Below are positions 23,381-63,530 of a stretch of DNA of 64,000 nt, in pieces. This DNA comes from Euglena gracilis (lineage: Eukaryota): assembly GCA_039621445.1 (NCBI GenBank), contig CP154954.1:29335411-29399410 (forward strand), written 5' to 3'. The notes under the pieces were generated by a model. The model saw only the letters and a list, made by a program, of their open reading frames with translations, had not been told where the DNA came from and searched no databases. Made by a program: the position numbers and the translations under genes. Within the stretch, counting starts at the first letter, position 1, and the number at the start of each line of letters is the position of its first letter.

Positions 23381-24807
23381 CATGGTGGTCAGCTTCACTC
23401 GGAATAGAGAAGAGCTTAGCAACCCCACCCTAAACCCCCAGCGTCCCACCGGAAATGGCATCCCCATCCCACAGCCACCCCCTCCCAACCTAACCCCCTC
23501 CCACCCTCACCCGAGTTCGTGCCACACTGTGCACACAGCGGCGATGAGGGTGGCTGGCAACGCTCTTCACGCGCCACACGGGAGCGCGGACACGGCGGAC
23601 AGTGGTTGGGGCGGTGGGGGCCGCTGACAGGAATGGCGGGGGGGGGGGGGGATGGGGTCCGGTCCTGCCAGCGGAGAGGGGGGGGCAACAGCAATCCTCC
23701 TTGATGCACCCACAATACCTCGAAGTCACCCAGCAACACACACTGACCGTCTCCCCCCCCTCCACAGGGCTGTTACAGGAAGGCGTGGTGGGGGAGGGGT
23801 GGTCAGACCTACCAGGGTGGGGGTTGGGGGTCACCACCTATGCGTCTACAGTCCTGCCTCTTCGTGCCAACACCCCCGCTTGCTGTCGCCCCCCCCCCCC
23901 CAGTCCCCCCTTGGTCAGCCCCCCTGGACAAACGAAATCTGACCTTCAACCATCGTTACAGCCGGAGAGGACATGGGCACCGACCGATGACATCATTCAT
24001 GGATTCACTTTTCAATTACCTTCAGACCTCATTTCCAGGCATTATTGTTTGAGGCGCCTTAGAAAAACCTTAAAACCACTTTAAACAAACCTCAAAAAAA
24101 TCAGTCTGGCAAAATTTATCTCCACCTGAGCAAAATCAAAATCTCGGCAAATGGCCCAAAAAACAAAATAGCCAGCTCTGCAGGGAAAAATGATGTGTGG
24201 CATCGCTGGAACGTTATCTTTCCGCCCAAATTCAACAAATGGGTGCTTCAACTCTTTTTTGATTGCACCCCATTCTCTGACAGAACGCCCTTGGACCACC
24301 CTTGAAAAATAGAACCTTAAAAATCCTAAAAACCTTAACAAACCTTAAAACGTGTCAAAAAAACTTAAAAAGTTTAAGAATGTGTGCTTAAAAATAATGG
24401 TTGCTTATCATCATTTCCTGACCATTCCACACTCTTGAAACAACCAGATCCCTCTTTGCTTGTCCTCTTTCTTTGCACTTTAATAATCGTTTTTTTTTGT
24501 TGAAAAATGCCTCGTAAAAAGCTTTCCCTCGTAAAGAGAGTCATCATTACAAGATACCCGAAGAGAAGGGATGAACATAAATGGTTATGTTTCGTGCCCA
24601 GAGGAGGGGCCCCCAGGCCATGATTGGAGGTAAGGCCGGGGGGGGGGGGGCAACATCTGAGATTGTCCACTTCACCCTTAACAAATGACTATGGACTTAG
24701 CTCACACATTTGGGCAACTGAAATTAAAAAAAATAATGGCATTTTGGCGTTTTGTTTTTTTTTGGCATTTTGGAGTTGGTTTAAGGACAGATTTACTGGG
24801 ATGCAGT

Positions 24808-25065
24808 CAGGGTTTTTTTTAAGACCGGGGGGGGTCCCCCCCACCCACCCACCCCCTGGCCCCCCCCGGGGGGGAGGGGGGTCCGGGGACCCACAAAAAA
24901 TGGCCGAAAATCGCGAAAAGTGCTAAAAATAGAATTTTTTTCGGCGCCTGCGGCGCCGAAAATTATATCCCACCCCCCTCCGGGGGGACCCCCCCCCGGG
25001 GGGGGCTCGGCCGGACCCACCCACCCTACCTCCCCCCCGGGGGTCCAAACTTAAAAAAATCCCTG
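24808..25065. mobile_element. MITE, CAG...CTG termini, perfect 8-bp TSD GATGCAGT
   Basis: TSD at 24800-24807 and 25066-25073. TIR CAGGGTTTTTTTTAAG / CTTAAAAAAATCCCTG. Confidence 0.9.
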
Positions 25066-25121
25066 GATGCAGTATGTGTCCCAAAACTCGTGTATGCGTC
25101 TAAAAAATTGTCAGTCTGTGA

Positions 25122-25455
25122 CAGGCTTTTGCTTAAGGACACGGGGGGAGGGTACTGGCTAGCCAATCGGCAAGACACTGGAAAAAATGGACTAGCTAGA
25201 CCCCCCTCCCCCCCCGGGGGGGGTGTCCCAAGGTCCCCCCAACTGGAAAAAAAATTTCCTCCGGCGCTGTGCGCCGAGGTGGAAATGAGTTTTTTTGAAG
25301 TTTTTGGCTGATTTTGTTCCAAAAAATCCCAATTTTTTTTCCACTACTTAGCCTTGCTAGCAGCCCCCCCCCCCCCGGGCCCACTAGCCAAATTTGGACA
25401 AGCTGCAGTCCAGCCCCCCCCCCTGGGGTACTGCAATCCCTTAAGCAGAAGCCTG
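25122..25455. mobile_element. MITE, CAG...CTG termini, 8-bp TSD (7/8 match)
   Basis: TIR CAGGCTTTTGCTTAAGG / CCTTAAGCAGAAGCCTG. Flanks GTCTGTGA / GTCTGTGT. Confidence 0.88.
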
Positions 25456-26480: not shown

Positions 26481-27964
26481 TTGTGACTGCGTGATCTTTT
26501 GCTTTTCAGAAATTGATGCATGACCGGTGTCATCTAGCATGTTCCCCTGAGAGGCATTTTAAACCTTGTTACACATCTTTCCTCCAGCCGTCAGACAGGA
26601 GCAAGATTTCGATGTCTTACAGCCTGACAAGAAACCAGGGAATATCTAAACTTCCCCCATGTCGGTCGTCAGCACTGAAACTGGTGCCCTCACCTCTCGG
26701 TCGCTCTGTCACTCCGAAAATGCCTGCAACTCTCCCCTCCTGCCGACCTCAATTTATCAAACCGGTACACCATGGATTTTCTTCCCTGATGCCAATCTCC
26801 TATTCCAAATGGTTGTGCAGGTGAAAACAAAAAAGGATTTTTTTGAAATTCCTTTGGTTGGATATTTGTCAGTTAGGAAAACAGGAATGGGGGACTGTTT
26901 TCACAAGGCTTTGAGGACGCTCCGAGGGCTCCAGCAGGGAATCCCACAAATTCGCGCTGACGACCCTGATTATCTGTGATTTTTCGTGCTGCCAAAAAAA
27001 GCGTCTGGTTTTTCACGTTTCCTGAATACACATTTTATATAAAAAAAATACAGTTTTGCAGTATTTTGTGGAATTTTGCAGGAATTTGTTCAAAAATTGC
27101 TGAATTTTGCAAAAAACCTCATTCTCTGAAGGATGGTCTCGGTCCCTGGGTCAAGCTCAAAGAGGGCTACAGAACAAAACAAAAAAGATACCTATATTCC
27201 AAAGTTGACTCAAAATGCCCGAAATGGCCAATAGTGGCCCAATAATGGTAGAAAATGATTGACAACTGGCCAAAATTTACAAATTTGGATGGAAAGGGCA
27301 CAAAATTGCGACAATAAGCCAAAAAAAAGAGTGCCAACAATGCCAAAAAAAATATTGATGATGCCCCATTCAGCATGCCATCTTGCCGAACACCAACCAC
27401 CTGTTCTCCAATCCCATAAAATTTTCATCAGGAAGAAACAGGTGAGAGGATGACTCTGATAATGATGATGGTGCTGGTTCGTGATTATTCGTGATTATTT
27501 GTGGCACGAATTTGTGGGAATCTCTGGCTCCAGTGTCAGACAAAAAAAAAAGAGCTGAGTTTGTCAATAAGGCCCTTTTTGAGTTCTTCACATGTTTTAA
27601 GTGACACTCGAGTTGCAAACCATCATTTCTGCACATTGCCAAAAATGTGCCACCAGGTGAAAAGACCCAAACAGGGGTTTTTTCGACGAGGATTGAAATG
27701 CAGAAAATCTCAATTCGTTTGAGCAATTGTGCAAAAAAAAGGTAAAAAACTTAAGTGCGAAATAGACCACCTAAAAACCTTGGGGCATAAAATTTTTCGA
27801 ATGAAAAGAGGAGGGGACATAAAAAGTACATGTTTTATAGAAAAACAACGATATATATATATAATATATATGCATATATATATATATATGTCTGCGTAAT
27901 ACAGACAGACAACTTGCGTGTACATATACGCGTGTGTGCGTACATGCATACACACACAGACAGT

Positions 27965-27968
27965 ACAT

Positions 27969-28043
<75 letters not shown>

Positions 28044-28064
28044 TACAGACAGACATACATACAT

Positions 28065-28095
<31 letters not shown>

Positions 28096-28465
28096 TACAG
28101 ACAGACATACAGACATACAGACATACATACATACATACATACATACATACATACATACATACATACATACATACATACATACATACATACATACATACAT
28201 ACATACACACATACATACATACACACATACATACATACGTACATACATACATACATACATACATACATACGTACATACATACATACATACGTACATACAT
28301 ACATACATACATACATACATACATACATACATACATACATACATACATACATACATACATACATACATACATACATACATACATACATACATACATACAT
28401 ACATACATACATACATACATACATACATACATACATACATACATACACACAACACACACACACAC
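27965..28465. repeat. Compound microsatellite, (GACA)n grading into (TACA)n
   Basis: Directly visible. Confidence 0.97.
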
Positions 28466-30508
28466 ATGTGTGTGTGTATAAAGGAACCCATACTGGAACG
28501 AGGAACAAAGTATGGCGCACTAGTACCTCCAACAAACGATGGCCAACGATGGTCCTTACAAAATCAAAAAAAAAATCACATCCCAGCACGTTCTATGAAA
28601 AATCCGCAGAGAAAATGGACAAAAAATGGCCATTTTTTGGGCAAGTGGGCCGAGTTCCGGGGAAAAAAGTGATTTCTGACATCCTTAGGACCATCGACCA
28701 TCCCCCAAAACGTCAAAAAATGGGTTGTTTCGACTTTTTTTTTTGATGCCCAGGTCGGCCGTTGGCCGCCCCTAAAGGAAATCTTTAACAAAAAAAGAAT
28801 CTGGTTCCTGAAAGACCGGCCCTGTGCCCAAACGTCTAAATGGACGGGAGCAAATAAATTGCGACCACAACTGGCAAGCAGCAATTTGCCAAGATGTCCA
28901 GCCCACTCACAACGGCGCCATGCGTTCCATATTCAATGTATATCAAAAAGAGGAGAGATGCTCAAGGCTGTATGGGAAGGCCTTGTGAGGGGTCGACCCC
29001 CCCCCGCACCAAGGAGGTGGGTGGAGTCGACACCCCACCCACCACAGCACCTGCGGAAAGAAAACTCCTTCGGTTCCGAAGGCGCCGAAACTTTTGACTT
29101 AAAAATTGGAAATACGGGAAGGCCTGGTGGGAGAGGTCAGACCCCCCACCCACCAGGATGGGGGTGGGGGGGGGGGTCTGACCTCCGCACCCACCACCCA
29201 TAGGGTTGCAGGGATTCCCGTACAGTCCTGCATATGCTGTTGCCATGCTGTTGCATATGTTCAATGGGAACAGCAAGCAAGCAATGCAATTGGTGGCTGC
29301 ATATAAGCAGCAATCAACCTCCTGTAAGTTCAGGATTCTGCTCAAAAGAAACTCTGAAACGTCCTCCATTCTGGCGGGCTGGACTCCCAGATTATCTGTC
29401 TACGGCCGTAAATATGTGTGGGGGGGGGGGTAATTTGACGTTGTCTCCCCCCAAATTCGACAGGCCAGCCAAATCTCGGGGTTGGGAAAAAAATAACTGG
29501 TCTGTCACACCCTGCATTCGGCACTAAACAGCCTTAAGTCAGTGTTTTATACCCCCCCCCTTCCAGGTGTTGGCAGACAGCCGAAACCAGGTGGGGGAAG
29601 AAAGCCAAAAATCTTCGAAATACCCGTGTATACTCCAAAAAGGCACAGCCAACTTTAATCGAGGGAAAATAAAAATACTCCTCGATCAGCCCCCCCCCCC
29701 AAGCACGGTTCTTCAAAACCATGCTCAGGTTGGGGACCGTGGTTCGCAGAACAATCTGATCCCCCTCCATTCTGGCTCGAACAGCTGGCTGGACCTGGCT
29801 GGTTCCCGAAACCTAGCAAAGGAACTCAATCCCAGCTGGCTCAGAATCTTTTTTTTTGCCAAAACAAGTTAAGCTGATTAGATGTGCTGCACAAAAAGCA
29901 GCACTTTCCCGACAAATTTGACCCCTTCCACCTTCCCTAAAAATTGGTTTTGCAGCTGGGAGCTGCTGGCTGAAAAGGGGACTGGCTGGCTGGATGCCCC
30001 ATCCCCTTCAGGCTGAATTTGGCTTGGGGGGTCTCAGAGTGCTTTGCCACGCAGGCACTAACGCCCCCCTCCAAATAACTTTGCCTCTTGGAAAATTGGT
30101 GGGCCGTTTTTTTGGCCCCTGCCCACTGGGCAGCTAATTGGCAGTTCCCAAAACCATTTATGGAACGATTGGCCACTTTTCCTAAAGCAATTGTTGTCAA
30201 ATGCTGTTTTCATTAATAATTGTAACATGATTTGATGCTTCATCCGGTGAAGCATTTTGGAATGATTTTTGTGATTAACGCCTCCTGATTTTCCAAAAAG
30301 ACCATTTTTTCATGGTATTCCTTGTGAAGGGGGCAAAATAATTTGGACGGATCTTTTCGCCCCCCCCCCCCCCCCCCGCAAAATTACTTGAACATACGAA
30401 ATTTGAGGGGATTGTGCCAATGGTCGTTTTGGCACCGTTCACCGGCCAGCTGTGGAAGCAGCAGCCAAGTCTCTTTCCAGGCCAAGGGCGAGCTGGCTGG
30501 ACCCCCAC

Positions 30509-30768
30509 CATAGATTCACCTATGATCCTGGGGAGGGGGGCACTGCTTCCCGCATGCAAGCCCACCCACCCACTTTTTCTCTCGAAAACCCCACCCATCC
30601 ACCCACCCAAAACCCACCCAAAATCGGCCGAAACCCTTTGAAATTCTGGTGGGCCAAAGACCAAACCATGGCGCACCCCATCACAAGGGGGTGGGGTCCA
30701 GTGGCCCCAGCCACCCACTCTCAAAAACCCTGGGGGGTAGGGTCACAAAGGTGTTGAGCGAATCTATG
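30509..30768. mobile_element. MITE with CAT...ATG termini, 8-bp TSD (7/8 match)
   Basis: TIR CATAGATTC / GAATCTATG. Flanks ACCCCCAC / ACCCCAAC. Confidence 0.65.
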
Positions 30769-33700: not shown

Positions 33701-36293
33701 CAACGTCGACCTCCCTGCACATAATTCGTCGTCCATCTATGGTCTGTCACCCACTGCAACGTGAGAAATTGCGAATGCAGTGAAAGTGGAGGGATGGGAG
33801 AACCTGTACCAAGAGAAAGTACCCCCCCCCCCGGGCGCTTGGCCTGGGCCACGATTGAAGGTAAGGCCAGGGGGCCAACCTTAGGGGGGCCAAGTTTGCA
33901 TGTAAGGAGAAGGGGGTCCAAGCGCCCGGGGGAGGCATGCAGGTTTCTGGGGGGCAGGGGTGCAGGGCAGGGGAGTTCTGGGGATGGAGAGCCAGCGGCC
34001 TACGAATGGCAACGGCCCCAATCTCCACAGCAGGGCTCCTGTGGAAAAGAAGCCCACCAAACGCGGTGCCAGGTGGGGGACAGCAGGGCGGGTAGGTCGG
34101 AAGGTACCAGGTATGCCGATGGGGAGACGGGAGGTAAGGCCGAGGGAGATAAATGGCAGGGCCACAGAGCGGGCCGCCTCACCCCTCAGTGTTGGGGGGC
34201 GGTTGCCTGGCTGAACAGGGAGAGGCCAAACTATGGCATCACGGCAAAATTAAAGCGGACGTTGAGCATGCACACACAAATAATGCACCTCACACGAAAG
34301 AAAGAAGTCTTCGCAGATGGCCGGTCGGGTTGGAAGAAGATCTGTGGCACAGAAATACCACTTGAGGTAATGCCTCTCGTCAGGGAGGTGAGGGCTGTTT
34401 GGCCGGCCACTGCAGCATGGGTCGCCGGCGGTAAACTGTGGTTGGCATCGGACAGAGGTAGAGGTGCGGTAGGGGCGAAGCTGAGATGGGGCCCACAACC
34501 AGGTGCAGGGGGTCGCTGAACGAGCCTCCCCCCAGAGGTCAGCTCAGTGGCCTAAAAAATTGGGCTGCTGTCTCCCCCCGGTTGGTACTGGGCCCGACCT
34601 CACATTAGACGTCAGGAACCAAAAAAAGCAAAAAGAACCCAAACCCCCACACAATTTTTTCGACCCAACAGTTTGGCTGGGTAGCCCATCCTGGGCCCAT
34701 TTGCCCACCCATTGTCGCACCTCGGAAAGCGAAACAGCCTGTCACCACCCTGCCAAGTGGACAGGAGTTAAGATTTTGTCGATAGGGGAGGGTGGCCCAA
34801 GGTTGGAAGACGGCTGCTAACTGGCTTGGCTTTCCCTGTGGGGGGATGGTGACACGGGAATGGTGTCCCGTCCGACATGAGCGACGCCGGGGCCAGGAGA
34901 GCCGTGGCCGGGCGGCACGTGTGACAGCGCCGCTCAGCCGGCGCCGCGCAGGCAGCGCAGGGGGGAGGTTGGGATGCCATTTGGGTCTCAAACGGATCGG
35001 GCAGAGCCCACAGTGCGGAGGGGCTGGGCCCGAGGTCAGGGGATTCCTCAGGACATCCCTCTAGGGGCAGGGCGGGGGGTGGTGGCACCCCTGGGCCCCC
35101 CGTGGGATAATATGGGGGAGTGTTTAAGAACCCGGGGGGGTTGCTGGGCAAGGGCGAGAAATTTGGGCTGGCCAACCCCCCCCCCCCTTAGTTGCACTGA
35201 GGCTTCTTGTCTGTTTATGGCCGGCGCTGACTTCGCTTCTGGCCCAGTTTGCTGCGTGGTGAGTGGCCAGGGACCCCTTACACCAGTCCTCTTTTGTTGC
35301 TCCCCCTGGCCGGGTGAGTAACTCTGGTGTAATTCCAGCGCTGTAGGGACATACACTCACCTTGTGTGGTTGGTGTGGTTCCCGTGGGTGGGTCTACACC
35401 CTTGCGCCCCAGTGCTGCTCTTGCCTCCTGCCCTCTTCCCACTTTTCTGTGTGGGGGCTGCATGGCGCAGGCTCAACGCCATGACTTGAAAAATTCCAAT
35501 GTGGCCTCACGGTCCCGCGGCTTAGGTAAACCCGGGTCACCAAGTCTCGGCCTTAGGGCGGAGTAGTTCCTTACATACTGGTACCTGTGCTCCATGCCCT
35601 GTCCGGGGTTGGTTTGGGCGGTCCACTGCCTCGCGGGTGGGTCCCTCTCTGCTGGCTTCCCCTTTGGGGTTGGGTTGCTGGGGGGTGCGCTCCTACTAGG
35701 CCGGCGCTCCTATTAGACCGGCCAGCCCCCCCCCTCCCGGGAGGGGGTTGAACCTGAGCCGGGCTGGGCTCTGGGCTGAAATCAGACAACTGCCCCAAAA
35801 ATGGCCCGCAAAAACGCAGCGTTGGAAAAAAAATAAGCTTCTCAACCCCAAAAAAACACGCCCAAAAGCACCCAAAACACCATTTTGGCCATTTTGAACA
35901 CCTGTTTAAATAATTTCGGCACGTTCCGCCACAAATTTTCCGGCTTGGAGCCAGTAAAAAAAGGGGCTGGCTAGCTGGACTTGCAGCAACCCACCCGCGG
36001 GGGGGGGGGGTGCCGCATCAGGGCTGGACCAAAATGGGGTTGGCTGCAGCAGCCCCCTGGGGGGGGGGGAAGGGGAATGCAAAACCTAAAATAGAGCTAT
36101 GGTGGGCATATGTGTGGCTGGGGGATCCACCGCAAACCATTGGAGTGGAGGTTGGGGGGGGGTCGCGTCCAGCTGGCCAGCTGTGGACAGGGTATAAAAT
36201 GAAATAGTGGGAGGGGAGGGGGGGCACAAAGGAAATTATTTGAGCTTCGGGGCTGCAAAAAGTGCCCAGATTTGTGGTCATACTTGTAGTTAG

Positions 36294-36845
36294 TGCGCCG
36301 CGGCGCTCATGCCGCGGCGCAAAAAAAAATTTTCTGCGGTGGTCGCGGCGCACAGAAAGATTTTTGCCGCGGCTGTCGCGGCACAAGCAAAATTTATTGC
36401 CGCGGTGGTCGCGGCGCAAGGGGAATTTTTTTCCGCGGTGGTTGCGGCACAAAAAATTTTCTGCCCGGAGCTCAAGAACGTATTGGCAGCAACACAAGAC
36501 CCAACATTTTTGGTGGAAAATTAGATTGAAGATGGTGAACGCTGATCTGTGAAAACAAACAAGAACACTTGCACAAAAGTGACCCTGCCGCCAAATACCT
36601 TTCTCGGCCATGGTCGAGAAAGTATCAAAAAGGCCAGGCGAGGGATGGGGTCGAAAGGAAGTATATGTGGGACACAATTTAAAAGACAATTGCCACAGTG
36701 GTCGCGGCACAAACTTCAAAAGTTTCCGCGGCGGTCGCGGCGCACACATAAACCAGTGCCGCGGCATTCGCAGCGCACAGAAAATTTTTTGCCGCGGCGC
36801 TGCCGGTTACAAAAAAATTTTCCGCGGTGGTCGCGGCGCACGGAA
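36294..36845. repeat. Degenerate ~33-bp minisatellite (CCGCGGTGGTCGCGGCGCA plus A/T spacer)
   Basis: About ten copies in two blocks. Related units at 16210-16275. Confidence 0.8.
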
Positions 36846-38333
36846 ACAATTTTTCCGGTCGCACTAACTGCAAGTATGTTTGTGGTTTACGGCACCAAAT
36901 CAACAAAAACAGATGACAAAAACATAAGTTTTCCAGCGCAAAGCACCGGGAAGATTTTTTTTGGTTCAGGGAGCCCCTGAACCATCGAAAAAAGGTGCTG
37001 CCTAGCTGGACCCCCAGGGGATGGGGTGCGGCTTGAAAAAATCCCCTGCCGCAGACCCCCCCCCCAAGCCTGGGGGAGGGGTGGTCCGGACCCCCCCTCC
37101 CTTACAAGACCAATGCTCACTTAATACCCTGGCTGCGGCCGAGAACCAAAAAACACAGGGGGGGGTGCCAGCACTTGCAGCCAAAGATCCGGCACATCGC
37201 CTTCATTTTCGGGCCGTGTTGCCCTGCTGGGCCCAACTTTGTTTCAGTCATCATTTGTGCAGTTGGACTTGGGGGGTTTAGTACGCTTGGAGCCAAGAAA
37301 GCCCCGGGGCAGGGTATGGAGTATGATGTGAGGTATGGGTGGGCTGGGCGGCTGCACAGGCGCAGTGAAATGGCTGCGGCACTCCCTCGGCCTTGGGAAG
37401 AAAGTGAGCACAGTAAACCGCCCCAGCCCCCAAGTGTGTGTGTGTGTGCGCGCGCGTGCGCGCGTGGCAACACACCCTCCCCCAGGCAGGTTAAAGGTTA
37501 CAGGTTAAAGGCACCAAGCAAAATAACGTAAACAACCCAAAAACAAAGATCACCAAGGCCACAAATAAGCGGTGGAAGCCAACATTAGAGGAGCCAAACT
37601 CGAGGAGGGGAAATGCCCCAATCGGAAAACCGCCTGGGGTGCAAACAATTGTTCACACTATTGTTCGTACCCATGCCTCTCTGGGAGATAGAGCATCTTT
37701 CTTAGGGGAAAATTTCAAAAAAAGGAAAAAAGAGAATATATATGGCAGCAAGATTTTATTTGGTCCTCCCCCGGGGGGGGGGGCAAATACAATCTCCTGG
37801 GGGGGTCAATTTTTTGCGTCATAGATGGAGTAGGGTTAGGGTTACAATTTAGGCCTAACCTTAGGCCTAACTTATAGATCAGTGCCAGGTGCACGAGTTA
37901 GGCCTAAATTTTGGCCGAACGACTAACTGTAACCCTACTCCATCAATAACGCAAAAAAAAATTGACCCGCCAGGAGATTTTAGTTGCCCCCCCCCCTCGG
38001 GTAGGGGGCCAAATAAAATCTTGCTGGTCCCAACTATGTGGCCCCCCACAAATAAATAAGGCAGCCATTGGTTACACGCCCCACCCCGGGGGGGTCGTAT
38101 AACCAATCCAGGGGGGGGGGATCAAAAATTTTTTGTGTTACTGGTGGAATAGGGTAAGGGTTAGGGTTAGGAGTTCGGCCTAACTTTAGGCCTAACTTGT
38201 ACACCTAACTCCAATCTGTAAGTTAAGCCCAAAATTTTTGGTAATAATAACCCAAATAATCTTGGAAATAATTACCCAAAAAGACTGGTAATATGACCCC
38301 CACCACGAGGGGCATATAAGCAATAGCTGCCAT

Positions 38334-39000
38334 ATGTATGTATGTATGAATGTATGTATGTATGTATGTATGTATGTATGTATGTATGTATGTATGTATG
38401 TATGTATGTATGTATGTATGTATGTATGTATGTATGTATGTATGTATGTATGTATGTATGTATGTATGTATGTATGTATGTATGTATGTATGTATGTATG
38501 TATGTATGTATGTATGCATGTATGCATGTATGCATGTATGCATGTATGCATGTATGTATGTATGTGTGTATGTGTGTATGTATGTATGTATGTATGTATG
38601 TATGTATGTATGTATGTATGTATGTATGTATGTATGTATGTATGTATGTATGTATGTATGTATGTATGTATGTATGTATGTATGTATGTATGTATGTATG
38701 TATGTATGTATGTATGTATGTATGTATGTATGTATGTATGTATGTATGTATGTATGTATGTATGTATGTATGTATGTATGTATGTATGTATGTATGTATG
38801 TATGTATGTATGTATGTATGCATGCATGCATGCATGCATGTATGTATGTATGTATGTATGTATGTATGTATGTATGTATGTATGTATGTATGTATGTATG
38901 TATGTATGTATGTATGTATGTATGTATGTATGTATGTATGTATGTATGTATGTATGTATGCATGCATGCATGTATGTATATGTACGTATGTATGTGTGTA
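38334..39000. repeat. (TATG)n microsatellite
   Basis: Directly visible. Confidence 0.98.
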
Positions 39001-39199
39001 TACGCATTAGAATCTTTCAAGAAACTTTCCAAAACAACATCAAAGAGAATGTGTATCTGCTCTTTGTGGAGAATGGGGTGGAACTCACGCCTCCTGCAAA
39101 ATATAGCCATAAATTATAATTGTGGTGTACTCCTGGCACCTGGCCTGAGTCAATTTTAAATGAAAATCAGGGGGGGGAATAATTGATATCGGAGGCCTT

Positions 39200-39665
39200 C
39201 GGAAAAATTGCGGAAAAATTGCGGAAAAATTGCGGAAATTGCGAAAAATTGCGGAAAAATTGATATCGGGTATACACATTTCTGCTTGGGGGGACTTAGA
39301 AAATTTTCAATTGTGAGGTTCAGAACACCGCAACACCCACGTCGATGCAGGCGAGCACAAATCAAAACGCTTGATGATCTTTGCACAGGTGGGACGCACC
39401 CAATCCTGTGACCGGTGGTGCACCTGTGAGAAAAATTGGTAAACTGGGGGGGGGACAACAAAACACAATATCAGACCTGTTGATCCATTTGAAGAATGGC
39501 TTGAACTCATTGCATCTTCCATCTTCGGATGGTGGAGAAAAAATTCTTCAAAAAAATGGTGAAAAATTGCGGAAAGATTGCGGAAATTGCGGAAAAATTG
39601 CGGAAAATTGCGGAAAATTGCGGAAATTGCGGAAAATTGCGGAAATTACGGAAAAATTGCGGATA
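39200..39665. repeat. Two blocks of (TGCGGAAAAAT)-like tandem repeats
   Basis: 39200-39260 and 39560-39665. Confidence 0.8.
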
Positions 39666-40526: not shown

Positions 40527-40933
40527 CAGGGTTTGATATAAGGACAGGTGGGGGGGGGTGGTCCGGACCCCCCCCCTGCAGGCCAGGAGGGGGGGTGGGA
40601 GGGACACCCCCCCACCTAAACAGTGGCGTGGTCCGGGTGACCGAAAATTTTTGACACCCCAAAACGACCAAAAGTGCCATTTTGGGCACTTTTTTGGCAA
40701 AAATTTGCCAAAAATGCCAAAAAAATTCGGCTCAAAGCGCCGGAGGAAAAAATTGACCCTTTTTGCGGGGGGTCCTGGGTCCCCCCCCCCCCCAGGGTCC
40801 GTCCGGACCCCCCTGGCAGGTGGGGGGGGGGGGTCCGGACCGACCCCGGGGGCCGGGGGGTCCTGCAGGCCAGGAGGGGGGGGGGACACCCCCCCCACCT
40901 AAACCATGTACGCCCTCCTTATATCAAACCCTG
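40527..40933. mobile_element. MITE, perfect 17-bp TIR, perfect 8-bp TSD GGCTGGAC
   Basis: CAGGGTTTGATATAAGG / CCTTATATCAAACCCTG. TSD at 40519-40526 and 40934-40941. Confidence 0.93.
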
Positions 40934-48600: not shown

Positions 48601-51600
48601 TTATAATTGGCATGGGGAAACGCTTGATCGTCCCATTGCTGCACACAGTGGTATGCAGTGCCCGACAATATGCACCTATCGAATCTCAGACACAAACTTC
48701 ACTGCGCAAAAAAAAGACCCTGTAAAAAATATTCTCTCCTATTTGAATCAGGACAAATTGTGCATTGCCTAATGTGCATTTCTCACACCCCAGAGTGCAT
48801 TTCGCCCGCCACACCTTGCACGCTGTCCCAGAAGGACTGCGGAATGCCGTCGCTGCTGTTACCGATGGAAGAGAGGCTCTTGGTCGGGGACGTGGCGTAA
48901 AATGCTCCATCTGTCCCATCTGGATATTGCAACCCCTTGGCCCTGAGAGAGAGGGGAGGGAGGAGACATGGAAAGTGGTCTGTTTTGGAGACATGCTGCA
49001 CCTTTGGACCCCAGCAACGCCGCCGAAACAGAAGAGTTGGAGGGGAGCTCGCAACCCCTTCCAGTTTTGGAATTTTTCATGTCTGGGGATTGTTTTGGGG
49101 ATCAAGAGACCTGGTTTCACAGCTGGTTTCCAGGGATTGAATGGCAAAACTTGACCAGAGCATCAGATGACCACATGGGGTCCCTGCTGTCTTTTGCTTT
49201 TTCAGCCGGGTGCGAGATGGCGAGGAGGGAGGCTTTGCCTTGTGGATTGCTTCGGCCCCTTTCCAAACAAGTATGATTCTCCTGGGCATCTACCCAGGCG
49301 TCATGCAATTGTTCGATGTGCTGGCTTGCTGTGGGGGGGGGTGCCCTGCGGCTTTGATGTACCAGGCAAGATGTAACATCATACAACAATGCTATATTGA
49401 GGCCTGCCACAGCAAGCACAAGGAACCCGCACAAAACTGTAATTCTACTTTGTGCATTTTTGATTCAGAAAAAACACACATAAAATGGTTAATGTTTGGC
49501 ATTCGTGGCTGGCCCTTTGGTTCGAGAAACTTTGGGCACGAGAAAATTTTACAGAGCATTGAAAATGATTTTTCCATCAAAGGCATCTGCCAGCAGAATG
49601 CTGAAAATCGGCAGATAAATTGTTATAGAACTTTGAAAAAATTGGAACCCGCCAAATCCCCCCCCCCCGTCAAAGATCGTGCAAACCCCCAATAAATGTG
49701 CAGCGCCATAATTGTGCGCGGTACCATCCATGGTAAGCCATACCATTGCTTGCTGACCCCCGGGGGAGGGGGGTCGCTTTCCACTTTCAAAAAAACCAGT
49801 CAGTCACTTTTCAAAATCAGTCACCCACTTCCTACCCTTCCCTGGGGGATCGGTCACTCTGGCCACTGGGTCAAAAATGCCCAAAAATCAAAGAATCTTG
49901 GTCAAAAAATCAAAAAAAAAACCCAGTGCATTCGTCGCAGGGTGGCTACTTTCGGCCATTTTGGCGACCCCACCCCCTTGGGGAGGGTCTGCAGTCAAAA
50001 ACCAGTCAGTCACCCCCCCCCCCCCCAGGGGGTGCGGTCGGATACACCTTATACAATGGTTTGATCCAAACGAATGTGCAACCGCCAAACCGCCGAAATG
50101 AGGTCCCTAACGGGTGACCCCTAAAATGGCCAAAAAAAAGTCTTTAAAAAACTCCTCTCATCTTTTTGACCACTCACCAAACCATACCTTCCTACAACCA
50201 ACCGCTCCCCCCCCCCCACCCACCCATCACAGACCCTCCTCCAAAGACAACGCCGCCCCCAAAAAAATTATTCCCAGGCTGACTTTTTTACACAGTTGCC
50301 AGCACTTTGCGCTGCCAGGGTCTTAAAATTGTTATTTTAAGACCAAAAAGAGGATGTGTTAAAATTGGGATTTTATTTTTTACATTTTTGCTAATTCTGG
50401 ATAAAAGAATGAATGAAAATTTGAACAAAACATGAACAAACCAACAAATCATAATTTTGCACATACTATGACAAAGAAAGGAAATTGCAATGATGCAACA
50501 AAGCAAAGCAACATTCAACAATGCAAAGCAAAGCACATTAAAAATTGTGGGGGGAAATACAGCAGCAAATCGCAAAAAAAACCATCGCAGTCGCCTGTCC
50601 CTCATAGCCTCTCCCTCATGCAAAAAAAATGACTAAGAAGAGCGTGTGGCACATTTTTCCAGAGCAGCATACCCCTGAGGGGCGAACGGAGGCAGGGTGG
50701 CCTTCGCATCGTTGCAGAGGTTCATCAAGCAGCGCCGCCGCATTGTGTGTGTCAACCCATCCCAAATAGCCTGGCACGGTGCCAAAATGTGGGGACCTTT
50801 TTCTTTTCACCTTCCCCCCTGCCAAGTTAAACCCCCCCCCAAATATAAGAAACCCGTTTCTTTTATTTGGGTGTCAGTCGATCGGCCCAAAGGGTTTCTT
50901 ATATTTGGGGGTTTCTTATATTTGGGTGTCGAAGGCAGGCCCCAAGGGTTTCTTATAAATGGAACTTTTTCCTCCTTTGGTTCCTTCAAGTAATTAATTA
51001 CATATGACCACGGCGTGTAGGATTTTCTTCATGTCTAATGGCTTTTGAGGCCCTGGAGCGTGTTTATGCTGAATCAGATCATTCCATCAGTCCAGAAGAA
51101 AGTGGTGGAGTGTAATTTCGGAATCTGGGAGTGATGTCGGTGAAAGAAAGATTCGCAAGAGACGAGGGGCTTCTTATATATGGATTAGCGTCCAACAGCC
51201 TAGGGGTTTCTTATATTCGGGGGTTTCTTATATTTGGGTGTCGGCTGAAAATCGGCCAAAGGGTTTCTTATAGCGAGGGTTTTCTTATATTTGGGGGTTT
51301 CTTATAGCGAGGGGTTTCTTATATTTGGGGGGGGGGGTTATTGGGCCACGAGCTTCCTTGCCTTCAAAAAAGGGGATGTGCCCGGTTACTGGAACAATCT
51401 TTTGTTTCCTGCTCTCTGCCACGGTGGTGCTTAGGCAAAGGGGGGGGGGGTATTTCAGGCACTGGGGATGTTATGGTGTTATTGGGGGGGGGGGGGTTGG
51501 CTTGTCTGCACCTGTGCAGTGCGGACAGGCATGATGGGAAACAAAAATGATGGGCAACCTTCTCAGCCATTCGCGGCCTATTGAACCCATCTTAGGTGAG

Positions 51601-51776
51601 TTGCGCCACATATGGTCGACCTTCTTCGACTTCGACACACAGCCCAGCGGGAGGGAGAACTGCTCCATCGGGCACATCGCGTCAAGCGGCTTCTTGGCGG
51701 GCTCCGCATGGCTGGTGTGGGCCATGACGTCCCCCGCCCCGGGCCACTCCACACCCATGTGCTTTAGGTCCGCATC
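45700..51776 (-). CDS. Probable downstream exons of the RRM gene: ~51560-51776, 50673-~50743, ~49200-49345, 48789-48942, ~47265-47400, ~45700-45860
   Basis: GC-rich open islands with phase-compatible GT/AG junctions (SAE|DADLKH, APQG|APPPT, MHSG|GCCART). The other junctions are unresolved and no domain was recognised. Confidence 0.55.
45935..46260. repeat. (GCATA)n pentamer microsatellite
   Basis: Directly visible. Confidence 0.95.
46280..46782. mobile_element. MITE, 16-bp TIR, 8-bp TSD (7/8 match)
   Basis: CAGGGCAGAACGGGAA / TTCCCGTTCTGCCCTG. Flanks ATCCCAGA / ATCCCAGG. Confidence 0.9.
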
Positions 51777-52199
51777 CTGCACAGGGACAGGGATTGCGTT
51801 GGCACCCCGCCAGAAGTTATTTACGGACATGGGGGGGGGCAGGGTATCAAGTGAGCGGGGAGGAGGGGGATCTGGACCTCCCTCGTGTTTTGCACTCTTT
51901 TTTTTTTTTTTTGAAAAATCAGTCAAAACATACACCAAAAATTTCATCTTCCCCGGTGGAAGCGCCAGAAATTTTGGGGGGGGGTTCCTGCGGGGGTCCA
52001 GGACCGGCCTGCCCTTCGCGCCAGGCCAAAACCATCCTACCTCCCCCCCCCCTTGTCCAACGACCACTAATGTTCGTCTCCGACCGGGGGGGGGGGCGGT
52101 CGCTAAAATGGCCAATGTTCGTCTCCGACCAGGGGGGGGGGTCGTTAGACAAGGGGGGGGGACCCCAAATCGGAGGAAAATTTACCATAGATAGGGGTA

Positions 52200-52562
52200 T
52201 ATGGCCATTTTTTGGGCTGTTTTTGGCCATTTATGCTATTTCTTGACTACGGTTGGCCACTTTTGGCCATTTTTGGACATTTTTGGGGCACTTTTGGGAA
52301 TTTTTAGGCATTTTTGACCGCTTTTCGCCATGTTTGGTCGCTTTTGGCCACTTTTGGCAACTGTTGGCCAGACTTTGGCCCCCTTTGCCCATTTTTGGCC
52401 ACTTTAGGCTGTTTTTGGCTACTTTTGGCCATTTTTGCCTTATTTTTGCTATTTTTGGCAACTTTTTGGGCACCTTTGGCCATCCCTTGGCCAAAGGTGC
52501 AACATTTTAGGCCATTTTGGGCTATTTTTGACTGTTTTTAGCCAACTTTTAGCAATTTTGGC
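52200..52562. repeat. Degenerate (TTTTGGCCA[C/T])n decamer array
   Basis: Directly visible. Confidence 0.8.
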
Positions 52563-52940
52563 CGAACCAACATCGTAAACAAAAAGATCGTCTCTGACCG
52601 GGGGGGTGGTCGTTAGACAAGCCCGGTCGTTGGACAAGGGGGGGGGGGGAGGTACCAAACTCCACACCCCCAGTTGAAGGATGTGCCGCCATGCCACCGC
52701 CAACTACCCGCCACTACTTCCTTCCCAACAAGGAACCAGTCCACCAATCAGTCCAGCAGGTGCGGGGAAAGCAGCTCAAAAGCCCTGAGCAGATCCGCCC
52801 TTAGGCCTCCCAACGCATGGGCTTCTGCATTTTGGGGCGGCATTGCCAGGGAGCAGCGGCTTCCGCCACATTCGCGTTCAAAAACAAATTCATGAATCTT
52901 GTTTTTGAACACTTCGAAGGCGCGGGGGGGATGGGCCTAC

Positions 52941-56949
<4,009 letters not shown>

Positions 56950-58096
56950 GCGGGCGGTGACGCGTGCGGGTCCACCCACGCGTCACCGTCGCACGTTGCG
57001 CGTCACACGTTGAGGTGGGCTTGGCGAGCGGGTGGTCGGCAGCCTCCGCCCCCCCCCGGATGGCCTGCCAACCTCCTGCTGCTGCCATAAATAAACAAAC
57101 GGGGAAAAAAGCTCCTGTGGGTTCTGCCCGCTCTTCCCCTGTGTCTGTGCTCTTTTTGGACCAGAATCCATTCCATAATGTGGGCCCGCCGCCAGACCAT
57201 TATGTCACCGGCAATGCAGCCTCGTGGAAAGGTTCCCGATCCTTTCCCCTCCGACTCCGACTGGGTGTCGTGTTCCCTCCCCCAAAGGGGTGAGCCTGTG
57301 CAAGCACAGAGGGGGCAAGACCAACCCACAAAGCATCCCATCCGTCTCCCTGCCCCCGGCCAGCCTTCTGTGCGGTGCAATTGGAGGGAGATGAGGCGAA
57401 GGGTGTTCGCCGGCCTCCGGCCAGCGGGAGGCTCCAGGGGGTGGCGTGGCCGGGAAACAGGTGGGGGCCCCGGATAACCCCCCCAGTGCAGATGTTTTGA
57501 TGCTCTTGACCAGCAAAATTAAATAAATGTTTCTGGGAGAAAAAGCTGTCTGCCATCTTCCTCAGCTTTAATTCTAATGTTATTCTTTCAGCTTGGAGAT
57601 TCCCACTGGACATAAAGTGCCACAAAGCAAATATTTCCCGAAATTAGAAAATTCCAAAAAAGAAAGTTCCAAGAAAGTAGAAAAAATCTGCGAAAACAAA
57701 AGGTCCGAGAGATATCTCATGAAGTTGCACACACAAAAAAGCCTTCAGCCCAAAAACTTTGGAAAGGGTGGCCATGGACATGGGAGGGACGGCAGTCCCT
57801 GAGCGTCGTTCTGTCCTGCTCAGGCTGTGCCAGCACAGGAGCGAAGCCAGTCCAGAGCCCGACATCAAGAACCTTCTGGGAGTCTCACTGCAAGACATGC
57901 ACTGCAAATGACTCAACTTTGGCGGAAACAGGCGGTAAACTTGCTCCGTGGTTTCGTTGTTATCATACTCTTTCCATCTGTACAAATTCACAGCCGAAAC
58001 AACAGCAGCAGCAGCAGCAGCAGCAGCAACATCAACAACAACAATTCAAGATACTGAAAATTTGATTTCCTGATCCCACAACCAGGTTATGAATAG

Positions 58097-61000
58097 TGCT
58101 GAGCTCTATACCTTGCACGGTTTTCCACTGTAAAACTGAAAACATGGCTCGGACGCAGAGGCGGAGTTATGGGACTTTTTTCCGACTTTTTTGACCCGTT
58201 TTTGACCCCAACTCCATGGGTTTCGGGCCAAAAACGGGGGGCAGGGGGGGGGGGGGCGAATAACGCTCATTTTCGGCTCAAAAACAGTTTTTCCGGGTCC
58301 CGGAGGCCAAATAACATCCTTTCAGGCAAGATTTTTTTCGATTTTTTTCGACTTTTTGACCCAAAAAAAAATGTCCGAAAATGGTCAGAACAGGCCAAAA
58401 CTGTACAAAATGGCCCAGATTGGCTGAAAAATGGACATAACTCGGGCTAGGCGGGGAGTTGCGGGGGAATAAAAATACCGTTAGATGGGGCATTTTAAGG
58501 GCTTCAATTTAGGTCTCCGGACATTTCCTTTGATTCCCCACAATTTTTGAGTAATTTGAGAAAAATCGATTTTTTGACCCTAAACAGGGCTAAAAACGGC
58601 ACGCACGACTGCCGCGCTGTTTTGGGACGTAAATTGGCCATATTTCGGGCTAGGCAGGGAGTTGCGGGGAAATCAAAATACGGTTAGATAGGGCATTTTA
58701 AGGGCTTCAATTTAGGTCTTCACACATTTGCTTTGATTTTGCTTCATTTCCGAGATATTTTAAATACATCGACTTTTTGACCCCGAAAACAGCCCAAAAT
58801 GGTCCCTGAAATGGGCCAAAATTGGCCGGAAAATGGCCGTAACTCGGGCTACACGAAGAGTTGGGGGAAAAGTAAACCATGGATGGATAGGGCATTCCAA
58901 GAGCTTCATTTTACTCTCTGGACTTTTCCTTTGATTTTGCTTCATTGTCGAGATATTTTGGAAACCCCGATTTTTTTGGCCAAAAAAAACGGCCAAAAAA
59001 ACACCCCAAAATGGCCGTTTTGGGCAGCAAAGGCGCGCCGGAAGACGGGCCAGGCGTGTCGGCGGCCAAAACGGCGAACGGGGGGTGATAGAGGGCCTCC
59101 GGGGGTACATTTCGTCAGACCGACATTTCCGGAAATAATGTACGTTTTCTCGAGATATTTTCGAAAAATCGATTTTTTGACCGATTTTTGGACCCCGGTG
59201 AAATGGCAGAGTCGAAAGGGGGGGGCAGGTTAATCCTATCCAGTTTGGACCCCTTCGCGGCTGAATAACTCGGGCCTGGCGGGGAGTTGGGGGTCAAACG
59301 GAGGTGATTCGGAAACTAGAAATCCAGTCGCTCGCAATTGAAAAAAAAAATCCGGGAACTGGGCCGGGGTCATGGTGATAATCCGCGGTTGTCACGGTCT
59401 ACCCAGAGGGGGGGCAGGGGGGTCAAACCCCCCCTTTTCCCCGGTGGTAAGCTTTGCTCTTACCCATAAAGGGATCGCTGAGCTCTTATCTCTTTAGAGT
59501 AAGAGCGAAGCTTACCACCCCGGCCGGAGACCCCCTGACCCCCCCCCCCCGCCCCCCCGCCCCTGCCCCCGCCCCCTCCCGCCCCCCCCCCTCCTCTCCG
59601 CCCCCCCCGGCCCCCCCCCTGAGTAGGTCCAGCCACCCGAGGATTATCGATGTGACCTGATTTCCGGACCCGAAAGGTTAATAGCCTATAGGTTAGGAGA
59701 GGGTCCCTAGTTTGTCCAGAGCCCTTAGGTTGCCCGCAACTCCGCGCCAGGCCGGAGATATGGCCGGAGCAAAAAAGTTGTCTACCGTTTTTTTTTCAAA
59801 GAAAGTTTGTTGGACCGGCAACAGGGGGTCATTTTTGGGGTCAAAAAACCGAAAAATTCAAAATATCTCGAAAACGCCGGGGAGTTGAGAAAAAGTAAAG
59901 AGTACCTCATTCCACAACTTTGGGACGCCCGATCCACCGGTATGCGCGGTTTGGGCCAACTCCCCGCCTGGGCCGAGATACGGCCGTTTTGAGGGTTCGC
60001 CACGGGGGGACTCTGCCATTTGGAGCCCAAAACGGGCCCAAAAACCACTTTTTGCAAAATATCTCCAAAATGGTGGGGAGTTGAAAAAAATGTCCGGAGA
60101 CCTAAATTGAAGCCCTTGGAACGCCCTATCTACTAGTATTTTGATTTCCCCGCAACTCTCCGCCTAGCCGCAGATACGGCCGTTTTCAGGTCCAAATGGC
60201 CGTTTTGTACACTTTTCCCTCTGTCCAACTTAGCCGTTTTCGGGCCAAAAATTCGAAAAAAATCGAAAAAATTTTTTTTGCCCAAAACCATGTTTTTAGG
60301 CTTCCTGGACCCGGAAAAAGTGTTTTCGAGCCGAAAATTGGCGTTTTTCGACCCGCCAGCCCCTCATGGCCCTCATGGTCATGATGCGCATCATGCCCAA
60401 TGATGGCCATCATGCCCAATGATGGCCATCATGACCCGGATGGCCATCATGACCAATGATGGCCATTATGACCAATGATGGCCATCATGACCAATGATGG
60501 CCATCATGACCCCGGATGGCCGCCATGACCAATGATGGCCATCATGACCAATGATGGCCATCATGACCCCGGATGGCCATCATTACCAATGACGGCCATC
60601 ATGACCAATGATGGCCATCATGACCAATGATGGCCATCATGACCCCAGATGGCCATCATGACCAATGATGGCCATCTTGACCCCGGATGGCCATCATGAC
60701 CAACGATGACCATCATGACCAATGACGGCCATCATGACCAACGATGGCCATCATGACCCCGGATGTCCATCATGACCAATGATGGCCATCATGACCCCGG
60801 ATGGCCATCGTGACCAATGATGGCCATCATGACCCCGGATGGCCATCATGACCAATGATGGCCATCATGACCCCGGATGGCCATCATGACCAATGATGGC
60901 CATCATGACCCCGGGTCGCGCCGCCGAGCCGCCCGGGCCGCGGGCCGCCGGGCCGGGCTGCCGGGCCGGGCCGGGCCGCCGGGCCGCCGGGCCGGGCCGG

Positions 61001-61190
61001 GCCGGCCGGGCCGCCGGGCTGGGCCGGGCCGCCGGGCCGCCGGGCCGGGCCGGGCCGGGCCGGGCCGGGCCGGGCCGCCGGGCCGGGCCGGGCCGCCGGG
61101 CCGCCGGGCCGCCGGCCGGGCGCCGGGCCGGACTGGGATGGTCTCCCAAAGAGCTCAGCTCTACGTCACACCCTGGTAAGAGCTCAGCGA
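58097..61190. repeat. Composite repeat: tandem ~200-bp modules, inverted copies of the same modules, palindromic minisatellite and GCCGG array
   Basis: Modules at ~58430, 58635 and 58833, inverted at ~59700-60340. GCTGAGCTCT / AGAGCTCAGC motifs at ~58100, 59477, 61148 and 61179. Confidence 0.65.
60395..60912. repeat. 19/21-bp minisatellite GATGGCCATCATGACC(AAT/CCG)
   Basis: Directly visible. Confidence 0.93.
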
Positions 61191-62469
61191 CACCCCCCTA
61201 TGTCCAATAATCCAACAATAATGCTCCGAATGGGGGTGTGACGTTGGGCATAGGATCATGACAAAAAGGTATCCTCCAACTGGGGTTCAGTCGTCAGACA
61301 AGGCGTCTAAAAAAAAAGTCCACGGACTGGGGAGGACCTCGTCAGAAGGTCTTTTTTTGTGTTTTGGCGCTCTGCACTGGAGAATTTTTGCATTTTTGAC
61401 TTTTTTTGTCCAAAAATACCCAAATGGTTTTTGGCTGATTTTGGGCAACAAAATTTTCGGCCTGGCGCTTTGCTCCAGACCAAAAATCTGTCCAAACCTC
61501 TGAAAATGTGTCCTCCGACCTGGGAGGGGGTTTTTCGTTAGACAAGGGGGGGGGATTGTTGGACAAGGGGGGTGGTGATGGCTCAACCAAAATGGAAGAA
61601 TCAGTCTCGAAGAAAACATCCGCGATATACAATCAATTTATGAACATAGTATCCAGGTATTGAAGGGGTAAACCTCAAAAAAAAATGCCACGGTTTTTGT
61701 TGCCTTACTGGCAGAATGGGGCAAAAAATTACAGCTGAGTAGTGGGATACCATGCCCATGGCCCAGAGTGCCGTTGCTGTTGCTACAAAATGCTGCCGGT
61801 ATGACCGAAAAATGCACCGCGATGCGCCAGCCTCCTCAAAATTGCACGAATCACCCGGACGCTGCTGGACTGGGCAGGCGGATGGGTCACGCCGGCTGGC
61901 TGAGGCGGGGGAGGGGCGTGGACCACCGGGTGGGGGGCCGGTGGGCCCGCCCGCAAGGCAGGGGGCAGCGGACCGTGCGCCGGGTGGGCCGGGGCGGGGG
62001 CTGGGCCGGCCACCCCGGGGTAGTGGTGGGGCGGGGCGGGGCCCCCGGGGTGGGCCGCAGTGATGTGGGGTGGCAGGGGGGAGGCCATGGGGGGCGAGGG
62101 GGGGCGGCACGCCTGCGGAGGCGGTGGCGATCTGATGCCGATGGTTTGGTGGCTTTGGTCCCCAGTGCCCCGGGGTCAGTTGGATTTAATTTACTGTGGC
62201 TGAAGAGGGGTTGGGGAGGGGGGTCAGGGCACCCCCAAAAAAGCCACAGACAAAGGCACCCCCAAATAGACACAGGGGCTTCCTGTGGCGTGCCATGCTT
62301 TGGCAATCATGCAAAAATGGCGTTCTCTGTCTATCTACGCCACTTGGTTGTGCCATAAGAATGCCATGAGAATTGACAAGAAAAATCATTTTGAGCTGTG
62401 AAACCCTTCCATGCCCGCGGGGGGAAAGGAAGACATTTTTCAGTGACCAGCACAGGGGGCGGTTCCTCT

Positions 62470-63530
62470 CCCCCGGAGACGAGGCGTGCCCCCCGGCGCA
62501 ATAGAGCGTTGGGCCTGGTAGGGGTGGGGGAGGGGGGCGGAGGGGTACTGGCCGGCAGGGTCCTGGCGGTACCCCATCGCCGGGGTCATGGGCGACATGG
62601 CGTTTTGTGGGGCCATCGGGGCCGGGCCCCGCTGCGGCGGGGTCAGCAGGGTATTAAGCTAAGTGGGGAGGAGGTGGCCTGGACCCCCGTGACAGGGCGG
62701 GGGGGGGTGGGGCACGTCGGACCCCCCTGTGCAAAAAAACTTTCTGTTGCAAAGTGCCAGAAAACCGCGTTTTTGCGCTTTTTTTTTGAAAAACAGGTCA
62801 AAACATACACCAAATTTTTCATCATTTCCGGCGTGAAGCACTGGAAAAAAAAATTGGGTTCCCGGGGGGGTCCTGGACCCCCTTTGCTCCGAAGGGAGGG
62901 GAAGGAGGGGGTTGGTGTGGACCCCCCCTCCCCTGGGGGGCCTCCTCCCCCCTCCGCAAAACCACCTCTCACTTAATACCCTGGGGGTCAGCCTTCCTCC
63001 TTTCGGGCCCAAAGTGTTGGGAGGGCTTGCCACCCCAAAAATCTGAGTTTGGTCCACACGGAGGCGAGCGGCGAGGAGCGGTCCAACTGAACTCATCCCA
63101 CGTGTCTGCGCCACGCAAGCAAATTAGAACTGCATGGAGCTGGGGAGTGGAATCCTGCAAACCATCCAACACCTTTTCGGGGTTGGCGGGAGAGGGTGGC
63201 TTCGCATCAATCCGGCAAAAGATGGAGGGTGGGACATCAGAGGGCTACTTATTCATGCCTTGCTGTACAGGCTTCATGGCACACCCGAAGGACAACGAAG
63301 TTGCGTCCCGACAGACCCACACGCTCCCCCATGCCCCCTCCGGGCCATCCGCTTCCCAGGGGGGCCCGAGGCGGGGTCAAGTGGAATGTCCCCGCGTGGC
63401 CTTCCACGTTGACGGCGGTGGAGGTCCCCGCGCTGCCCAGCCCGCCGCCCTGCCACCCCGCAGGCATGGGGGGCTGCTGTTGGTACGGCCCGCCCAGGCT
63501 GCCCGCAGGCACCCGCGTTCCGGTCTGATA
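62470..63530 (-). CDS. Probable upstream Pro/Gln-rich exons of the RRM gene (~62470-62640, ~63370-63530, possibly ~62990-63115)
   Basis: Open GC-rich frames PAPMAPQNAMSPMTPAMGYRQDPAGQYP and GGPYQQQPPMPAGW. Linkage to the RRM exons is not proven. Confidence 0.5.
62647..62983. mobile_element. MITE, perfect 12-bp TIR CAGGGTATTAAG, perfect 8-bp TSD GGGGTCAG; candidate introner
   Basis: TSD at 62639-62646 and 62984-62991. Family fragments also at ~51840-52020 and ~37119-37131. Confidence 0.92.

Follow-up and report, generated by a model that had tools for sequence, protein, structure and literature searches.

The window analysed here is a 64,000-nt stretch of Euglena gracilis nuclear DNA (GCA_039621445.1, CP154954.1, positions 29,335,411-29,399,410 of the forward strand), which carries an expressed gene for a two-RRM protein and at least eight elements with terminal inverted repeats (TIRs), all of them ending in CA..TG and flanked by 8-bp target site duplications (TSDs). 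These elements, which mostly have CAGG(G/C)..(G/C)CCTG ends, are best explained as non-autonomous DNA transposons from several families; they are small and non-coding (258-600 bp) and are referred to below as MITEs, miniature transposable elements with inverted repeats, each named by its start. Most introns of the gene are of the nonconventional euglenid type, whose origin and mechanism of removal have been open questions since the 1990s. The geometric match between a MITE with its TSD and the code by which such introns are spliced is exact, and it is backed by independent published numbers. One nonconventional intron of 142 nt, the best single case, looks like an old insertion of the MITE kind.

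The evidence from reads (depth, joints and loose ends) covers positions 38990-53980. Run X14 is DNA-like, with a depth of about 38-56 in unique bins, introns included, while run X17 is RNA-like, two bins made up of intron sequence only having depths of 0 and 0.13. Raw RNA reads from X21 and X24 were used alongside X17.

MITEs with 8-bp target site duplications

The eight elements were found by a scan for TIR pairs combined with reading of the sequence. Their TIRs are 11-24 nt long with an identity of at least 80%, and the TSDs are perfect in five elements (24808, 36279, 40527, 55721 and 62647) and match at seven of eight positions in the other three (25122, 30509 and 46280). The initial annotation had listed seven elements with these ends and duplications; all seven starts were confirmed, and the eighth, 36279, has been added.

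24808-25065: MITE, 258 bp, CAGGG..CCCTG, TSD GATGCAGT (8/8)
25122-25455: MITE, 334 bp, CAGGC..GCCTG, TSD GTCTGTGA/GTCTGTGT (7/8)
30509-30768: MITE, 260 bp, CATAG..CTATG, TSD ACCCCCAC/ACCCCAAC (7/8); outside the CDG/CH'G signature
36279-36878: MITE, 600 bp, CATAC..GTATG, TSD TTTGTGGT (8/8), with internal 33-nt repeats; absent from the earlier list
40527-40933: MITE, 407 bp, TIR CAGGGTTTGATATAAGGA, TSD GGCTGGAC (8/8); within the nonconventional intron 40133-41006
46280-46782: MITE, 503 bp, TIR CAGGGCAGAACGGGAA, TSD ATCCCAGA/ATCCCAGG (7/8); within the nonconventional intron 45764-47334
55721-56061: MITE, 341 bp, CATAC..GCCTG, TSD CTTCCGAT (8/8); within the GT-AG intron 55608-56756
62647-62983: MITE, 337 bp, TIR CAGGGTATTAAG, TSD GGGGTCAG (8/8); within the nonconventional intron 62617-63371

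Under a strict criterion (CA..TG ends with an exact match over the five terminal bases, at least 10 of 12 matches in the TIR and at least seven of eight in the TSD, and ends outside tandem arrays) seven pairs were recovered from the real sequence, against a total of 21 over 100 dinucleotide shuffles and a maximum of two in any one shuffle. Element 55721 misses the rule of five exact terminal bases and was detected by a separate scan. When the end letters were left free, a looser scan gave 0-3 chance pairs per shuffle, a yield that matches the four weak pairs with non-CA ends, which were disregarded.

BLAST of seven of the eight elements (all but 55721) against the window returned self-matches and a few short matches, each element being single-copy here. 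The elements had been described as unrelated, with different interiors. The interiors of those queried do differ; the word 'unrelated' does not hold, as the TIR consensus CAGG(G/C)..TT....TAAG is common to 24808, 25122, 40527 and 55721, which by their ends are sister families.

The families of 40527 and 46280 are very high-copy. DNA word depth reaches 302,564 over 40490-40989, where MITE 40527 lies, compared with 38-56 in unique bins, and the two bins that span 46280-46782 reach 67,339 and 31,739. For the two read-covered MITEs this amounts to 10^3-10^4 times the depth of unique sequence, a summed word depth that is not equal to copy number and supports only the statement 'very high-copy' for these two families. 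RNA reads whose flanks differ from one another (agreement 0.41-0.66) stop exactly at 40527 and 46280, the loose ends at exactly 46280 being found in two RNA runs.

The base 3' of the right TSD is C in five of the eight elements and the base 5' of the left TSD is G in three, so that in this small sample the elements may have a palindromic G-N8-C target preference. Nine metagenome loci match the 18-nt TIR of MITE 40527; these matches comprise the TIR only (18-22 nt), have no partner TIR, look bacterial in several cases and were rejected as chance.

Introns of the RRM gene and the nonconventional splicing code

The gene in which four of the MITEs lie is placed on the minus strand because 4 of its 11 RNA joints read CT..AC on the plus strand.

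37376-63500 (-): gene for a two-RRM protein, expressed, mapped part; extends past both mapped ends

Between 37376 and 63371 the mapped gene contains 20 introns, six of the GT-AG type and 14 nonconventional, and about 8% of the span is exonic. The introns are supported by 11 RNA joints, two loose-end matches and seven protein-constrained junctions. The joints were found in both X17 and X21 (most of them also in X24) and none was present in the DNA run X14. The neighbouring exons were placed at 54751 and 37375 by consensus strings of the loose ends. Read in frame, the spliced sequence codes for an RRM protein; one exon matches a 585-aa Euglena gracilis transcript product at 100% identity over the aligned part, and mapping of this protein back onto the window gave the seven further junctions. 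A stop codon lies near 45351, and five nonconventional introns are thus located in an intron-rich 3' untranslated region (3'UTR).

The published signature of nonconventional introns is given by Nomura et al. 2025 (PMC12501133) as 5'-N3CDG..CH'GN5-6 followed by a purine (R). According to the available text of that paper it covers 61.2% of the nonconventional introns of E. agilis, the donor spacer must be exactly 3, the acceptor spacer has to be 5 but may stretch to 6, and these rules were tested by knock-in. The code, which the initial annotation had treated as established, and a transposon origin, which it had treated as proposed, are both in print (PMC12501133, PMC3935182). Definition of the stems by RNAduplexfold was dropped, since spacer bases were paired too and the spacer sums were unstable, and the published signature was tested instead. 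It fits 6 of the 14 nonconventional introns, five with N5 and one with N6.

45764-47334 (-): nonconventional intron, N3(GTG)-CAG..CTG-N5(CCCCC), flanks matching at 5/8, RNA-defined
53119-53260 (-): nonconventional intron, 142 nt, N3(GGC)-CAGGGCTG..CAGCCCTG-N5(GGGGC), RNA-defined
54869-55495 (-): nonconventional intron, N3(GCC)-CGG..CCG-N5(GCCAT), protein-mapped boundaries
57430-57804 (-): nonconventional intron, N3(GCT)-CAGGG..CCCTG-N5(GAGCC), protein-mapped boundaries
57843-61875 (-): nonconventional intron, N3(GCC)-CAGTCCAG..CTGGACTG-N5(GCTTC), protein-mapped boundaries; contains a 19-nt tandem array
62617-63371 (-): nonconventional intron, N3(CCT)-CGG..CCG-N6(GCCCCG), slidable by the repeat CCCCG, protein-mapped boundaries

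Another two of the 14 have N3/N5-6 spacing around the non-CDG stems CAC..GTG and CTC..GAG. The generalisation that introns of this window start 3 nt before the stem and end 5 nt after it is therefore valid for six to eight of the nonconventional introns and fails for the rest.

The MITEs carry the same signals. CAG..CTG ends are present in five of the eight (all but 30509, 36279 and 55721), a purine follows N5 in 8 of the 10 orientations of these five, and MITEs 40527 and 46280 have the full signature in the transcription orientation of the RRM gene. The stem ends of the introns, CAGGG and CAGGC, are identical pentamers to the MITE ends. The fold of MITE 40527 taken at -3/+5 has a terminal stem with 2 nt and 4 nt left over, like that of the 142-nt intron. 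The arithmetic by which the initial annotation had connected the two, 3+5=8, is correct: with a TSD t1-t8 on both sides, cuts after each t5 remove the element plus 8 nt and rebuild t1-t8, and owing to the TIR the cut is scarless in both orientations.

The 142-nt intron 53119-53260 corresponds to a 134-bp TIR element (53124-53257) with a perfect 8-bp TIR (CAGGGCTG/CAGCCCTG). The 8-nt flanks of the element, GGGGAGGC/GGGGCAGC, match at six of eight positions, and the two mismatches are one intronic base and one synonymous third position (GAG/GAA, both Glu). The RNA is cut at -3/+5: the joint 53118->53261 has the support of 13 reads of X21, 4 of X24 and an X17 contig, and does not occur in X14. 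A second joint, 53115->53258, removes the element and, in the direction of transcription, the next 8 nt, so that GGGGAGGC is left once. It is present in one X14 DNA contig at a depth of 40.2, beside the filled contig at a depth of 29.3, and also in 7 X21 RNA reads. The intron-less DNA form is shorter by exactly 142 bp and resembles an empty target site. Fold evidence for this intron is limited to the terminal stem, which closes it; the fold of the whole intron, with a z-score of 0.50, is not unusual.

Several further observations concern the gene and its repeats. At 53296 a second RNA population (9 reads, agreement 0.95) diverges into another upstream exon, and a few residues of the public 585-aa protein are unlike those of the window; the RRM gene accordingly has an expressed paralogue or a divergent allele. 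The 2747-nt 3'UTR intron 42563-45309 starts with GT but ends in CG and has a stem 6 and 12 nt from its ends, making it a candidate 'intermediate' intron. To the left of the exon end at 37375 an X17 RNA contig continues for 493 letters. Provided that nothing interrupts this exon, the contig would begin near 36883, at a distance of 5 nt from where MITE 36279-36878 ends, and the transcript may terminate at this element or be cut next to it.

Within the nonconventional intron 42011-42500 lies a 211-bp repeat (42099-42309) with DNA-contig loose ends at 42099 and 42313, which imply that it is repeated elsewhere. It has a perfect 8-bp direct repeat, TTTTGCCT, on both sides and no TIR, so 8-bp duplications are not limited to CA..TG elements. 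A further element with inverted repeats, not of the MITE type above (GGGGGGGGAATAATTGATATC..GATATCAATTTCCCCCCCC), occupies 39170-39690 in the 3'UTR intron 37376-39983, with a DNA word depth of about 230,000-255,000 in its bins. Tandem arrays and microsatellites with the units (TACA)n, (TATG)n, (GCATA)n, (TTG)n and the 19-nt ATGGCCATCATGACCAATG (about 29 copies) are found at 27941-28467, 38333-39001, 45937-46260, 53993-54184 and 60366-60910, all within introns of the RRM gene except 27941-28467, which is left of the mapped part. Two retroelements were recognised by Pfam.

2-2076 (-): long terminal repeat-type reverse transcriptase and aspartic protease, continuing past the start of the window
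11278-15788 (+): DIRS-like retroelement, a reverse transcriptase followed by a tyrosine-recombinase (phage-integrase-like) open reading frame (ORF)

Origin of the nonconventional introns

A MITE origin of the nonconventional introns of euglenids was proposed in PMC3935182 and repeated in PMC4770533, PMC11282704 and PMC12501133, as well as in PMC11170887 and, for diplonemids, in PMC12621601. In the portions of these papers that are available, PMC3935182 states that euglenid transposable elements had until then not been identified, and PMC11282704 describes TIRs at +4..6/-8..-6 and 'TSD-like' repeats. A full-text literature search, with subscription journals and closed supplements outside its reach, returned no euglenid MITE families, no hAT naming and no link between 3+5 and an 8-bp TSD. 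In the window, high-copy elements that end in CAGGG..CCCTG and have 8-bp TSDs lie next to introns of like geometry, and the old hypothesis becomes directly testable.

A CAG..CTG MITE together with its TSD already holds every cis signal of the published splicing code. A cut at -3/+5 removes the element and exactly one TSD copy, so that after insertion into an exon the mRNA would be the same as before, whichever way round the element lies. We lean, by a little, towards the view that the nonconventional introns largely descend from MITE insertions of this kind, the 3+5 spacing of their splicing matching the 8-bp stagger of the transposase. Such descent would account for the spacers of 3 and 5, the 'slidable' character of most Euglena introns and the tolerance of the genome for mass insertion into exons. 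The junction direct repeats recorded at 84.4% of E. agilis introns in PMC12501133, where 'slidable' introns are set aside and not read as TSDs, are in line with it. We further infer that the MITE families themselves are spliced on landing in exons, and that they belong to hAT. The proposal of the initial annotation that these families act as introners is well founded in the geometry and in one MITE-like intron with an intron-less DNA form; it is not demonstrated, as no MITE was seen spliced. More tentatively, and with rather less confidence than we place in the descent of the introns, the second splicing system can be regarded as an RNA-level excision system for hAT-like transposons with cuts tuned to the 8-bp stagger. 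Any CAG..CTG MITE would be excised without a scar, and through this tolerance such MITEs would have flooded coding exons and given rise to the nonconventional share of about 70%. On this view the 'slidable' direct repeats of most Euglena introns are TSDs in decay.

A number of results weigh against descent from MITEs. None of the eight MITEs is coextensive with an intron, and each of the four in the mapped gene lies within a larger intron, which is nonconventional in three cases and GT-AG in one. Given the small exonic share of the span, finding none of the four in an exon is the chance expectation, so that this result is silent rather than negative; likewise, mature mRNA cannot tell whether MITEs 40527 and 46280 are spliced, because both lie inside larger introns. 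No MITE-excising joint occurs among the 15 joints listed of 493 in the read-covered interval, and no intron of the 20 is a copy of any MITE family, as judged by BLAST in this window with seven of the eight elements as queries. The three CAT-type elements (30509, 36279 and 55721) fail CDG/CH'G, and 6 of the 14 nonconventional introns are off the -3/+5-6 rule. Pfam detected no transposase in the 23 long ORFs, which gave retroelement domains only, 441 shorter ORFs (at least 65 aa, 16-64 kb) being unscanned.

At the six N3/N5 introns the in-register identity of the 8-nt flanks is 22/48, compared with a null of 18.4 +/- 2.3 obtained by re-pairing flanks between introns; 22 was attained in 20 of 265 derangements, and shifting the register by -2 or +3 gave 21. 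The excess is not significant in this small sample and also counts among the unfavourable results; six introns decide neither way on the refuting condition of the initial annotation, that intron flanks lack an excess of 8-bp similarity. The 142-nt intron has weaknesses of its own: the intron-less form is known from a single DNA contig in which the shorter side of the joint is 26 nt, as in every run; the joint 53115->53258 is flagged 'between: not known'; the form could be a paralogue, to which the loose end at 53296 points; and an intron-less copy does not separate gain of an intron from loss.

Coincidence or convergence is the strongest alternative. Ordinary MITEs would gather harmlessly in introns, the introns would arise otherwise, by double-strand-break repair or by change of older introns, and the likeness would come from the required terminal hairpin. 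This accommodates the nesting of all four MITEs in larger introns, the lack of family copies among the introns, the non-significant flank identity and the introns off the rule. It also agrees with the authors of PMC4770533, who in the available text ascribe the eight-nucleotide direct repeats of a newly gained gapC intron, present in one strain of E. agilis only, to double-strand-break repair; those repeats may abut a CAG..CTG stem. We nevertheless consider coincidence unlikely. Three independent numbers agree (the 8-bp TSD, the 3+5 spacing and the 8-nt repeats of the newly gained intron), the end pentamers are identical in introns and MITEs, and the 142-nt intron differs from its intron-less DNA form by the element plus 8.

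If the link between MITEs and introns is real, the elements could nonetheless come from a superfamily other than hAT, since P, Merlin, Mutator-like and Zisupton elements also make 8-bp or near-8-bp duplications. By anatomy the eight elements are hAT-like, an assignment drawn from TSD length and end sequence that leaves the superfamily unproven. The end motif of hAT is YARNG, which CAGGG fits in four elements and which CAGGC, CATAG and CATAC do not fully fit; this misfit and the lack of a transposase in the long ORFs scanned favour another superfamily. On the other side, CAGGG ends of the Ac/Ds type, 8-bp TSDs and TIRs of 11-24 nt are classic for hAT, and a non-hAT source seems improbable to us. 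We give very little credence to the reverse direction, in which 'MITEs' would be mobile introns copied back into DNA from excised RNA circles: excised nonconventional introns are circular RNAs in the available texts of PMC11282704 and PMC12501133 and retroelements are present in the window, but the 8-bp TSD and long TIRs of all eight elements mark a staggered transposase cut, and the elements end at CAG/CTG and not at the -3/+5 RNA ends expected from a copied circle.

Comparison with known systems

Three known systems come closest to what is seen in this window. The first is that of the euglenid nonconventional introns (PMC12501133; Milanowski et al. 2014, 2016, PMC3935182, PMC4770533), for which the available texts give CAG..CTG or CGG..CCG at the foot of the terminal stem. 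A MITE of this window with its TSD is like these introns and reproduces their N3 and N5 spacers. Unlike them, the MITEs are DNA elements in many copies whose TSDs are intact; those within the mapped gene are nested in other introns, and three of the eight, with CAT..ATG-type ends, are outside the code.

The second system comprises the Ac/Ds-like hAT MITEs, which resemble the present elements in their 8-bp TSD, short TIRs beginning with CAGGG, small non-coding bodies and high copy number. The present elements differ in that no autonomous partner was seen in the window among the 23 long ORFs, and in that the ends CATAG, CATAC and CAGGC depart from YARNG. A study by Giroux in 1994, cited in PMC3935182, is said to have reported that Ds acts as an intron in maize.

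The third system is that of the introners of Micromonas, Aureococcus and Amoebophrya (PMC11282704, PMC7789003), which according to the available texts are excised by the spliceosome or a variant spliceosome, with TSDs of 3-5 nt, those of Amoebophrya having inverted repeats of 8-20 nt and direct repeats of 3-5 nt. Introners are multi-copy families that are introns themselves, whereas none of the 20 introns in this window is coextensive with a MITE, and for the elements described here excision is predicted to be by the nonconventional system, with -3/+5 cuts and an 8-bp TSD. The principle would be the same in both: a TIR element is removed from RNA together with one copy of its TSD, and a hairpin joins the exon ends.

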